A program made the position numbers and the translations under genes. 64,000 nucleotides of DNA from Candidatus Woesearchaeota archaeon (lineage in GTDB: Archaea > Nanobdellota > Nanobdellia > Woesearchaeales > JABIAG01): the NCBI GenBank assembly GCA_018653365.1, contig JABIAG010000001.1:192001-256000 (forward strand). Direction: 5' to 3'. A model generated the notes under the pieces. The model was given only the letters and a program-made list of their open reading frames with translations. It did no database searches and had not been told where the DNA came from. This document shows positions 18,423 through 22,100 of this stretch, one piece after another; the first letter of the stretch is position 1, and every line of letters starts with the position of its first letter.

Positions 18423-19118
18423 TTAATTATCTTGATAGAAATCCAGGGCTTTTTTTAGCTCTTTTTTGTCTAAATCATTAAATTCGACCTTAGAAAAGTG
18501 ATGTTTAGAATTATGTGAATCCCAGAGCAAAAACCCGTTTGTAGTATGATCATGAGTGTTCACGATCAAGTCAGGGGGGATGTAATATGATGAATACAGG
18601 TTATCTTTCACTAATTGCTTAGAGAGTTGATCTGGGGCGATCTTCTCATATTGAATACTTCGTAAAATAATTCGTAACGAATTTAAGATTTCTTCTTGAC
18701 CATCATAATTAAGACATAAATTTAGAAAATACTGATCATGATCTGCGGTCTTATCTACAACTGTTTTAATAGCGTCTACGACTTTAGAGGGGAGATCATA
18801 CCATTTACCCAAAACAGAAACTTTTATCCGCTTATCATGAACTAAAGGATTGTCAGCAAGATTATTTAACAAGTCAACAATTGAATCCATGTTCTGAGCA
18901 AAGTTTTCAATATGAAACTGAGATAAGTTAAATGTGAAGATTAGAATTTTATTCTTAATACAAAAATCTACTGACTCAATTAATCTCTTATTTCTTGATT
19001 CTAATGCTGATTCCACCGAAACTGAATTAATATCAGCCCAATATCCTGCATCTTTAACATTAAAAGCAATATGTTTTGGTCTAAGGGAGGTTTTAAACAT
19101 GATTAAAGGGAATGTCAA
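18423..19118 (-). CDS. cis-Prenyltransferase (UppS) homolog with degenerate active site
   Basis: PKHIAF, LNYDGQEEI, PPDLIV, GFLLWD present; DGNxR and RTSG absent. Confidence 0.85.
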   Translation of the reverse strand: MTFPLIMFKTSLRPKHIAFNVKDAGYWADINSVSVESALESRNKRLIESVDFCIKNKILIFTFNLSQFHIENFAQNMDSIVDLLNNLADNPLVHDKRIKVSVLGKWYDLPSKVVDAIKTVVDKTADHDQYFLNLCLNYDGQEEILNSLRIILRSIQYEKIAPDQLSKQLVKDNLYSSYYIPPDLIVNTHDHTTNGFLLWDSHNSKHHFSKVEFNDLDKKELKKALDFYQDN

Positions 19119-19172: not shown

Positions 19173-19997
19173 ATGCTATTTGAGATAATTGCGGTAATTG
19201 TGTTAACAATTGCAACTTATACAGATATAAAAGAAAGAGAGGTATCAGACTGGTTAAGCTGGGGATTTGTAATCTTTGCATTAGTACTAAGAGGGGTGAT
19301 GTCTATAACACAAAATTCATACTTGCCTATCTTAAAAGGTTTAGTTGGATTTGGATTGTTCTTTGGAGTAGGATATTTGCTGTATAGATTAAACCAGTGG
19401 GGTGGAGCAGATGCAAAAATTCTGGGGGGATTGGGTGCATTGTTTGGAATTTGGATTGTTGGAGGCTTCATGATAAATTTTGTAGTTAATTTATTACTTG
19501 TTGGAGCAGCCTACGGATTAATTTATGGCCTAATTTTAGTATGGAAAAACCGAGCACAAGTAAAACTTGTGAAATTAAAATACACTAAGTTACTAACCTT
19601 TACGGTACTTATTTTGATAATTATCGGAATGTTCTTTTTACCTGATGTGCAACTTAAAATAATGTTCTTAATCTTAATTCTATTAGTATATGCTATGCCT
19701 TATGCAATGGTTGTTTTGACCGCACTACAAACACAAGTACTAAAAAAATGGGTTTCACCCTCAGTATTAACAGAGGGAGACTGGATATCAAAAGATGTAA
19801 TTGTAAAAGGGAAAGTAATCTGTGCAAGAAAAGATAATGGAGTTAGTTTAGCACAAATTAGAAAGTTAAAACGGTTAAAAGTAAAAAAAGTATTAGTAAT
19901 GGAAGGGATACCCTTCTTACCAAGTTTTTTGATTGCATTTATTCTAACTTGGTTAGGTGGAAACTTTATAGTTTTTGTAATAAACATATTAAGGTAA
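19173..19997 (+). CDS. A24 prepilin/prearchaellin peptidase
   Basis: YTDIKEREV, WGGADAK, LTEGDW, GIPFLPSF. Confidence 0.9.
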   Translation: MLFEIIAVIVLTIATYTDIKEREVSDWLSWGFVIFALVLRGVMSITQNSYLPILKGLVGFGLFFGVGYLLYRLNQWGGADAKILGGLGALFGIWIVGGFMINFVVNLLLVGAAYGLIYGLILVWKNRAQVKLVKLKYTKLLTFTVLILIIIGMFFLPDVQLKIMFLILILLVYAMPYAMVVLTALQTQVLKKWVSPSVLTEGDWISKDVIVKGKVICARKDNGVSLAQIRKLKRLKVKKVLVMEGIPFLPSFLIAFILTWLGGNFIVFVINILR

Positions 19998-20495
19998 TCG
20001 GGTAATAACGCTCTTAACCCAAGAAGAATCTTTTATTTCTTGTTTTTCCTCTTTAACTTCTTCTACTTCTTCAGCAGGAGCTTCTTTGCCTAAAACTATT
20101 TTGTTACAAGCATTTTTCAACTTAAGCTCAATCACTCCAAATTCTTCTTTGTCTAATTGTTTTGGTTGCCACTCAAAATTCAAAGAATCATTTTGTTTTC
20201 GCGGAATTATATTAACCGCAAGATGAGGAATCTTCTGGCCTGCGCCTGTTCCATTCTGAATTAAAGTATTTGTTCCTTCAGCACCAAATGCCTCAAATAA
20301 AGCAGATGAAAGAACATTAGCAGTATCAAAAAGTTTTCCTGCAAGTTCTTCAGGAACTTGCTCAAGAATAGTATAATGTTCTTTAGTTGTAAGAATTATG
20401 TGCCCAGGTACTGCAGGAGTATCACTAAGAAAAGCAACAAGGTTTTCATCTTCATAAACCTTTCTTTCAATGTTCTCACAATATTTGCATGTCAT
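19989..20495 (-). CDS. HIT-family protein with degenerate triad
   Basis: CKYC, PGHII, GQKIPHLAVNIIPR. Confidence 0.88.
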   Translation of the reverse strand: MTCKYCENIERKVYEDENLVAFLSDTPAVPGHIILTTKEHYTILEQVPEELAGKLFDTANVLSSALFEAFGAEGTNTLIQNGTGAGQKIPHLAVNIIPRKQNDSLNFEWQPKQLDKEEFGVIELKLKNACNKIVLGKEAPAEEVEEVKEEKQEIKDSSWVKSVITRLP

Positions 20496-21505
20496 TAAGT
20501 AAATAAGCTAGCAATATCATCTAAACTAGCAGCCTCTTTTGGTTTTTCTTTTTCTGGTTCGGGTTGTTTTCCCGGTTTTTCTTTTGGTTTGTCTTTGGTT
20601 TCTTTTGTCTTTTTTCCTTTTGACTTTCTTCCCCTATTCATTGGTGAAGACTGAATTTCTAAATTAGCATCAACATAGTATAAACGATTCTTTTCTCTTG
20701 TGATCCCAACAACTTTAACCTTTTCTTTAGGTTGTTTACCTTTCTTTCTACCCCTAACCATCTTAACTCTAGAAATATCCCCTTCCTTATCAACAAAGTA
20801 AAGAAAACCTTTTTCTTTTTTTGATTCTGATACTTCGGGTTCAGGAGGTACGGGTGTTGTCTCTTCAGGTGTTGGTGGAACCGGAGTTGTTTCCTCAGGA
20901 GTTGGGGGGAGAGGTTCTGGTTGTTGTTCTTCAGGTTCTTCTTTAACTTCTTCTGCGGGTTTGGGTTCATCATCCGCAATTTCAATTCCTAACTTCTTAG
21001 AAATGAATGCCTTTAAATCAGAAGCAAGAGATTCAAGTTGAGTAGTATCAATCTTATTTTCTTGAAGGTCAAAACAGGTTAAACCATCCTTATCTTTTCT
21101 TGGTACAATATGAATCATAAAGTGTTGAGCTCTTTGACCTGCAGGAAGACCATTAGCAATAAAAATACTAGTTCCTTCACATTTTAATGATTGTAAACAA
21201 CAATTAGAAAGTGCTTTAGTAATCTTGCCCATCCGTTCCATTACATCTTGAGGTACTTGAGGACCAACCTGGAGATGCTTCTTAGGCATAAGTAAAATAT
21301 GGCCAGGATTAGCAGGATTAATATCTAATATTGCTAAACAATCATCATCTTCGTAGATACGAGTGGATTCGATCTTTCCATCAATAATCTGACAAAAAAT
21401 ACACTGTTGTCTAAAGAATGCTTCACGCTCCTCAGGAGACATCTTAGCTAATTTTTCTTGAAATTCTTTTATTTGTTCTTCAGTAGGTTGTTCTTGTTCA
21501 GGCAT
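20495..21505 (-). CDS. HIT-family protein (degenerate triad) with Pro/Glu linker and Cc1-like module
   Basis: CIFCQII, LDINPANPGH, GQRAQHFMIHIVPR; GFLYFVDKEGDISRVKM and RLYYVDANLEIQSSPM repeat. Confidence 0.85.
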   Translation of the reverse strand: MPEQEQPTEEQIKEFQEKLAKMSPEEREAFFRQQCIFCQIIDGKIESTRIYEDDDCLAILDINPANPGHILLMPKKHLQVGPQVPQDVMERMGKITKALSNCCLQSLKCEGTSIFIANGLPAGQRAQHFMIHIVPRKDKDGLTCFDLQENKIDTTQLESLASDLKAFISKKLGIEIADDEPKPAEEVKEEPEEQQPEPLPPTPEETTPVPPTPEETTPVPPEPEVSESKKEKGFLYFVDKEGDISRVKMVRGRKKGKQPKEKVKVVGITREKNRLYYVDANLEIQSSPMNRGRKSKGKKTKETKDKPKEKPGKQPEPEKEKPKEAASLDDIASLFT

Positions 21506-21551: not shown

Positions 21552-22100
21552 TTAGGCCAACTCTTTTTTTAGAATTTTATGTGCAACATTTATTTGTTTA
21601 AACTTTTCTGTGTTTCCATTAGCCATATCTGGATGATGTTCTTTTGAAAGTTTCTTATAATTTTGATGCATTTCTTCGAAATCTGTTGAATCTTCATCTA
21701 CTCCCATAGTTTTTCTGGCTTCTTTTCTTTGTTTAATAATGTCATTATCTTCTTTAAACAAGTTTGAAAATTCTTCGGGAGTTAGTTCTTCATTAACTAA
21801 ACTTTGAAGAAAGTGTTCAATGACTTGTGCAACCATGGCCAGATTCTCAACAAATTTTGAGGCATGATTATAACTGAAAAATAAATGTTCATCCCACATA
21901 TACCAAGAAATTAAAGCTTGTGCTTTTTTCATCGCAACACGTTCTAACGGAACGTCAATATCATCTTCAGTTAACCCAAATTTTCTTAGATTGCTAATTA
22001 TCTTATTCTTGTATTGCAAAGCCTTTCTATCATATGAGTCCCGAATAAATACTTGTTTGAACTCATGTCCTTTAATTTCAGTCATAAGTCTGATATTCAC
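21552..22100 (-). CDS. Protein with C-terminal J-domain
   Basis: YKKLSKEHHPD...FKQINVAH. Confidence 0.88.
   Translation of the reverse strand: MNIRLMTEIKGHEFKQVFIRDSYDRKALQYKNKIISNLRKFGLTEDDIDVPLERVAMKKAQALISWYMWDEHLFFSYNHASKFVENLAMVAQVIEHFLQSLVNEELTPEEFSNLFKEDNDIIKQRKEARKTMGVDEDSTDFEEMHQNYKKLSKEHHPDMANGNTEKFKQINVAHKILKKELA

Follow-up and report, generated by a model that had tools for sequence, protein, structure and literature searches.

The HIT-A/HIT-B locus

We analysed a stretch of 64,000 nucleotides (the window) from contig JABIAG010000001.1 of a Candidatus Woesearchaeota archaeon, and within it a gene for a HIT-domain protein, HIT-A, that carries a basic module of two repeats in its C-terminal part. 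HIT-A occupies 20495..21505 and encodes 336 aa (stop included), as established from the list of open reading frames (ORFs), the translation, the Pfam HIT match and orthologues; this gene and all features described in this section lie on the minus strand and are given in window coordinates. From N- to C-terminus, the protein consists of a helical extension of acidic composition, the HIT domain, a linker of acidic character, the basic module, a tail rich in Lys, Glu and Pro and a short C-terminal motif. This layout, module included, is kept in five orthologues from the databases, at 64-84% overall identity. The HIT domain spans about residues 34-140 (21086..21406) and was confirmed by a Pfam scan, in which PF01230 matched residues 44-138 at E 1e-17, and by HIT proteins of the PDB, which matched at E 2e-20. 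It contains a CxxC (21392-21403) and a degenerate triad, H128-F-M130-I-H132 (21110..21124), in which a gap-free alignment to the HaHvH and HfHlH of solved HITs shows the middle His replaced by Met. The HFMIH triad is unchanged in six HIT-A orthologues.

Downstream of the HIT domain, residues 178-225 (20831..20974) form an acidic Pro/Glu linker, recognised from its sequence and a charge calculation; the computed net charge over residues 176-227 is -15. The linker holds PPTPEETTPV twice, at residues 200-219 (20849-20908), and the two copies, identical as protein, have diverged as DNA and so went unreported by Tandem Repeats Finder. The basic module follows with about 74 aa in all. Its two homologous units were delimited by alignments, the first together with free-standing proteins described below, and by the strands of an AlphaFold2 (AF2) model: unit 1 covers residues 226-260 (20726..20830), with the core GFLYFVDKEGDISRVKMVRGRKKGK and strands 11-15 and 21-25, and unit 2 covers residues 261-299 (20609..20725), with KVKVVGITREKNRLYYVDANLEIQSSPMNRGRK and strands 38-41, 51-55 and 61-65. 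The protein closes with a flexible tail that is rich in Lys, Glu and Pro by composition (residues 300-325, 20531..20608) and weakly conserved among orthologues in both sequence and charge, and then with the motif ASLDDIASLFT (20498..20530), which fits an order-wide consensus, [SND]-L-D-x-I-[AST]-x-[LVI]-[FLI].

An original prediction, made from the DNA of the window, had described much of this arrangement. The doubled PPTPEETTPV upstream of the module was found as described, and so was the duplicated basic motif, which is conserved in orthologues and whose halves are 50% identical over 30 residues (E 1e-6). The motif had been placed at 20628-20822; although the peptide does lie on the minus strand, that frame is off by one base and reads into stops, and the in-frame interval, 20627-20821, reads KKEKGFLYFVDKEGDISRVKMVRG...NRLYYVDANLEIQSSPMNRGR, residues 229-293 of HIT-A. 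The prediction was also right that the module is fused to a HIT domain without a nucleophilic His, and that this domain is one of a pair. The second gene, HIT-B (19989..20495, 168 aa, HIT profile E 8e-18), overlaps the stop codon of HIT-A with its own start as TAATG, reads H-L-A-V-N at the triad (20211-20225), likewise without the nucleophilic His, and ends in a C-terminal motif of its own, SSWVKSVITRLP (19992-20027).

The basic module and its family

The module has a computed net charge of +13 and an isoelectric point (pI) of 10.36. A search for shorter proteins yielded about two dozen free-standing relatives of 74-85 aa, each made of two copies of the unit, and a hidden Markov model (HMM) of this free-standing family, whose computed median pI is 10.37, matched HIT-A residues 227-295, unit 1 among them, at E 2.7e-30. 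Free-standing relatives of 75-78 aa matched the module at E 1e-19 to 1e-12 by phmmer. The family unit is about 37 aa long, with a core of G[FYW]LY[FY][VI]DKxG[DN][VI]SR..M.RG followed by a K/R/G linker, and its consensus in the free-standing relatives is KVAKVGVKKEKGFLYFVDKxGDVSRAKMARGRK. One such relative is encoded by the host genome itself (1.09 Mb, 95% complete), where a 78-aa free-standing paralogue of the module lies on another contig (G000 contig 3, 104727-104960; E 8e-37). An exhaustive phmmer search returned 332 clusters at E<=1e-3. In addition, when one genome of each species was scanned with a 20-sequence alignment, a relative turned up in at least 569 species genomes, in a range that takes in Woesearchaeota, Nanoarchaeota, Omnitrophota, Marinimicrobia, Planctomycetota, Elusimicrobiota and others, that is, DPANN archaea and many uncultivated bacteria. 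The module can thus be assigned to an unnamed and very large family of basic two-repeat proteins of 75-80 aa.

Family members that stand alone are annotated 'hypothetical protein'. The module of HIT-A had no match in Pfam or NCBIfam, a Pfam scan of all 51 members of the module family gave only scattered sub-threshold matches, and a PDB sequence search with the module gave none. The AF2 model of the module is a confidently predicted all-beta structure of five strands (predicted local distance difference test score, pLDDT, 83), for which no significant structural neighbour was found in the PDB; in fold it matches unnamed Atlas clusters at template modelling (TM) scores of 0.77-0.79. The HIT-A module shares with the free-standing family the doubled unit, the basic pI and the predicted all-beta fold. 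It differs in sitting inside a 336-aa HIT protein rather than in a gene of 75-80 aa, in being flanked by the acidic linker and the conserved C-terminal motif, in the missing leading strand of unit 1, and in the diverged turn of unit 2, which reads DANLE instead of DKxGD.

The unit is also found in multi-copy or fused form, in P0032, P0068, P0076, P0130, P0156, P0165 and P0045. P0032, a membrane protein of 886 aa, has at least seven units, and P0076, an acidic protein, has six; the fusion partners seen are a zinc ribbon with GAF and prokaryotic RING domains, a nitroreductase, DoxX, OmpA, an S26 peptidase fragment and membrane proteins. A part of these fusions may be gene-calling artefacts.

The duplicated motif had been likened to an internal repeat of Cc1, a chromatin protein of Thermoproteales reportedly described by Luo et al. 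2007. Cc1, crenarchaeal chromatin protein 1, is represented by UniProt G4RKF6, and Pfam has no model for it (PMC7613761). As a source of sequences, a 51-residue Cc1 bait was used to fetch real proteins and for nothing else, and all comparisons were made on the fetched sequences. The bait retrieved 109 proteins, many of which are named 'DNA-binding protein CC1' by NCBI, the named ones coming from Pyrobaculum neutrophilum, P. aerophilum, P. calidifontis and Thermoproteus. Their alignment revealed a single unit of 54-60 aa (about 6 kDa), KLKFYDIKAKQxFETDQYEVVEKQTARGPMLFAVATSPYTGIKVYRLLGKKK, with no internal repeat, and its conserved pattern, KLKFYDIK...FETDQYE...SPYTGIKVYRLLG, is unlike that of the two-unit module. 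Profile comparison found no match: the module family (51 members), compared by hhalign with that of Cc1, gave a probability of 0.13% over 1 aligned column, the best BLASTP hit between module and Cc1 had E 64, and cross-searches with the HMMs in both directions, with filters off, stayed at or below 1.8 bits, compared with about 128 bits within each family. The missing repeat and these three sequence comparisons speak clearly against the module as a Cc1 homologue.

Structural comparison, which was made between predicted models through their neighbour lists, leans the same way. The best neighbours of the AF2 model of Cc1 (pLDDT 92) were Cren7 and Sac7d-derived proteins, at TM 0.47-0.57 with non-significant E values, and Cren7 and Sac7d are absent from the lists obtained with the module model. 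The module therefore differs in its neighbours from Cren7 and the Sul7d proteins (Sso7d, Sac7d), SH3-like chromatin proteins which it resembles as a small, basic beta protein of archaea; moreover, the Pfam Cren7 model matched nothing in the host genome.

The HIT pair across the order

HIT proteins are dimers, and in all branches of the superfamily that have been characterised the nucleophile is the central His of HxHxH. In both proteins of the locus, gap-free alignments to solved HITs place another residue at this position, Met in HIT-A and Ala in HIT-B. Compared with the Hint-branch hydrolases (for example PDB 3l7x, 3imi and 1y23, and human HINT1), HIT-A has the HIT fold, the CxxC and the nucleotide-pocket motifs, and the remaining N-terminal nucleotide-binding motif is retained (CxFCxI...LDI.P...GH). 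Apart from the nucleophile, the nucleotide pocket is preserved in both subunits. Unlike those enzymes, the pair lacks the nucleophile and carries Arg (HIT-A) or Lys (HIT-B) just before the triad, where the enzymes have Ser or Thr; HIT-A adds the N-terminal helical extension, the charged tails end in short conserved motifs, and the two genes stand in tandem.

HIT matches were present in 201 of 201 sampled genomes of the order. From these we read 53 HIT loci of different families, in a sample deliberately biased to long open frames. The pair and the single-gene form of sister orders were seen in loci L092-L102, L127-L166 and L196-L207. The HIT-A triad reads H-x-[MVIL]-x-H in nearly all loci checked, a few ending in F, and its middle residue is never His; the middle residue of HIT-B is likewise something other than His in all of the loci. 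In each of the approximately 90 copies examined, the middle position holds Met, Val, Ile, Leu, Ala, Ser, Thr, Cys or Gly instead of His. Nearly all copies retain the first His, and HIT-A retains the third, which HIT-B has lost in many lineages. As a control, in the separate HITs of about 135 aa found in relatives (L208-L215) the same columns hold HxHxH, which means that the missing His is no alignment artefact. A canonical HxHxH HIT of about 135 aa was not found in the host genome (95% complete), which may lack any active Hint-type enzyme.

HIT-B lies directly downstream of HIT-A in nearly all inspected loci of the order, and each subunit has its own C-terminal signature. The motif [SND]LDxI[AST]x[LVI][FLI] was seen in 41 HIT-A proteins, with L, D and I invariant in 16 tails from different families, and nearly all HIT-B copies terminate in a YLxKQLxRIP-like sequence. 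A genome-wide scan of the host for other proteins with either motif found none, and the motifs are therefore not a shared docking signal there. In sister orders of the class a single gene of about 200 aa combines a HIT-A-like N-terminus, a non-His middle residue and an RIP end, which suggests that the pair probably arose by duplication. Within the order, one locus (L129, G007:C13:46000-48300, ORF 653-1714 on the plus strand) encodes a 354-aa protein with an A-type triad, HFMVH, and an RIP C-terminus of B type, which is perhaps a fusion of A and B or else an unduplicated form. The pair is ancient and conserved in this DPANN order, and seems to us more notable than the module fusion itself.

The fusion has a far narrower distribution. 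Among the 53 HIT-A loci, the module HMM matched in three settings only. The gene studied here and its near relatives (members of the same genus, together with the NCBI orthologue in L089) have two units each. In a second genus of the host family, HIT-A has an intact unit next to a decayed one, and in one genome of another family it has one complete unit. In this sample the fusion that had been predicted is therefore limited to the host family and one genome elsewhere, and other long HIT-A tails are low-complexity linkers. Such rarity makes the module a lineage-specific accessory on an old scaffold. A DK/AN-L-x-I variant of unit 2 is common to the fused HIT-A modules and to the modules of a zinc-ribbon protein and a membrane protein, which suggests that one module subtype may have spread by domain shuffling. 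The fusion is a new domain combination of a known fold with a widespread unnamed module.

The genes around the pair are less constant. Linkage to GluRS holds only within the family, and a conserved operon with GluRS beyond the family level was rejected, as other families have different neighbours. Between GluRS and HIT-A, the minus strand at 21552-22100 encodes a 182-aa protein with a C-terminal J domain (Pfam DnaJ, residues 131-179), in place of which the orthologous locus L089 has a NUDIX gene on the opposite strand. Downstream of an A24 peptidase lies a cis-prenyltransferase (UPPS)-like gene (18423-19118, minus strand), whose orthologue in L089 matches Pfam Prenyltransf. Elsewhere, the stalk gene P1 and an adjacent P0-like ORF together occupy L090:213-1406 (+) and L090:1339-1764 (+), around 400-402 kb of G000 contig 1; P1 has the usual stalk ending, but the P0-like ORF, of 397 aa, finishes in ...AEDIIKDAKE and lacks the shared tail of the stalk that is usual in archaeal P0.

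Interpretation of the fusion

The reading that we favour, with a probability of about one half, is that HIT-A and HIT-B form a non-hydrolytic, nucleotide-binding dimer that is tethered to nucleic acid by a captured two-repeat module unrelated to Cc1. What is known of the HIT family, the overlap of the two genes and their strict co-occurrence all point to a HIT-type dimer. Such a dimer would bind a nucleotide ligand and would be unable to hydrolyse it through the usual nucleotidyl-histidine intermediate, while the terminal motifs of the two subunits may dock partner proteins. In this lineage the module entered the disordered C-terminal tail of HIT-A. As a polycationic insertion, it would, to judge by its charge only, give the complex an affinity for polyanions, most plausibly nucleic acid (DNA or RNA), which the adjacent linker, with its charge of -15, may mask.

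Several observations weigh against this interpretation. Repeat 2 of HIT-A lacks the near-invariant Gly of the hairpin turn. The unit also occurs in settings that are not basic or have no obvious nucleic-acid link, such as acidic multi-repeat proteins, the tails of membrane proteins and the nitroreductase, DoxX, OmpA and S26 peptidase fusions. Moreover, most HIT-A orthologues lack the module and have tails that range from very basic to very acidic; the module is thus an accessory and not the core of HIT-A function.

The same settings fit a possible though distinctly less probable account, in which the module serves for self-assembly or protein-protein contacts, for instance by propeller-blade-like association or partner docking, and its charge is secondary. 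The weak best structural neighbours of the module are propeller blades (two-blade fragments of 2yms, BamB, YWTD, and Pizza and tachylectin fragments), and the scattered sub-threshold Pfam matches of its family are to DUF5050, PQQ_2 and SSL_N. The presence of units in acidic proteins and membrane-protein tails, and the lone unit retained by HIT-A in G108 and G052, are consistent with this account as well.

A broader proposal, which we regard as similarly tentative, starts from the nucleoid. No histone-fold gene was found in the host genome, and one Alba only, so that the free-standing two-repeat protein could be a nucleoid protein. It might then be a nucleic-acid binder of new fold and the main nucleoid protein of histone-less DPANN archaea, with the HIT-A fusion as a nucleotide-responsive adaptor to chromatin or RNA. 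By description only, the free-standing family resembles a candidate nucleoid-associated protein (NAP) of Methanomassiliicoccales (WP_019177984.1 / AGI86273.1), which is similarly small and basic: it has 70-74 aa, is Lys-rich, has a predicted novel fold and bacterial homologues, and in M. luminyensis makes up 1.3% of the proteome (Hocher et al. 2022, PMC7613761). That protein, the one possible relative of the module family with experimental data, likened to it by description and not by sequence, is abundant, yet its nucleoid enrichment is no more than nominal (PMC7613761), which, if the two are related, would again count against a nucleic-acid role of the module.

It is unlikely that the two proteins have kept a catalytic activity by some non-canonical mechanism, for example one that relies on the first His, the third His or a bound metal, with the module merely localising an active enzyme. 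The near-constant first His, the third His of HIT-A and the conservation of the rest of the pocket would suit such an enzyme, and in a genome without a canonical small HIT some HIT activity might be needed. Against it stand the replacement of the nucleophile in every one of the copies examined and the loss of the third His from many HIT-B lineages.

Still less probable is a role of the HIT-A tail in translation, in which the LDDIxxLF helix would imitate the tail of the stalk protein aP1 (LxxLxxLFG) and dock translational GTPases while the module binds rRNA. In HIT-A, as in the archaeal stalk tail, a short amphipathic motif ending in LF(G/T) comes after a linker that is flexible and charged, and the hydrophobic residues of HIT-A at -9, -6, -3 and -2 (L, I, L and F) are placed as in stalk proteins such as Pyrococcus aP1. 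Several HIT-A orthologues end in ...LFG, the host P1 ends in GLGALFG, and the HIT-A gene adjoins GluRS within the family. However, the GluRS linkage is not kept outside it, the motif in many cases does not stand at the very C-terminus (LFGAKK, LLGGGV, IIDLK), and the invariant Asp of the Asp-rich LDDI core has no counterpart in stalk tails. A complex prediction that paired 45 aa of HIT-A tail (alignment of 16) with the host aEF1A (alignment of 21), run without controls, gave no answer at a score of 0.00 and speaks neither for nor against this role.

Finally, that HIT-A is a Cc1-type chromatin tether with a homologue of Cc1 as its module is scarcely credible: the module and Cc1 have in common a small size, a basic pI of about 10 and an all-beta structure, and Cc1 binds single-stranded and double-stranded DNA (PMC4200833), a non-specific binding that is probably the module's role too, but the two differ in taxonomic range as well as in repeat structure, conserved pattern, profile, BLASTP and cross-HMM scores and model neighbours.

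Had the link to Cc1 been true, it would have carried a rare crenarchaeal chromatin protein into DPANN archaea; that link fails. The fusion is instead evidence on the domain context of a very widespread unnamed family, whose unit behaves as a portable module, one that the flexible tails of other proteins can acquire. It also points to a conserved pair of pseudoenzymes with the HIT fold, each subunit of which has a distinct conserved C-terminal motif. The organisms that carry this pair depend on host organisms for nucleotides, and a non-hydrolytic, nucleotide-binding HIT dimer that is conserved in genomes of about 1 Mb would likely do something important.
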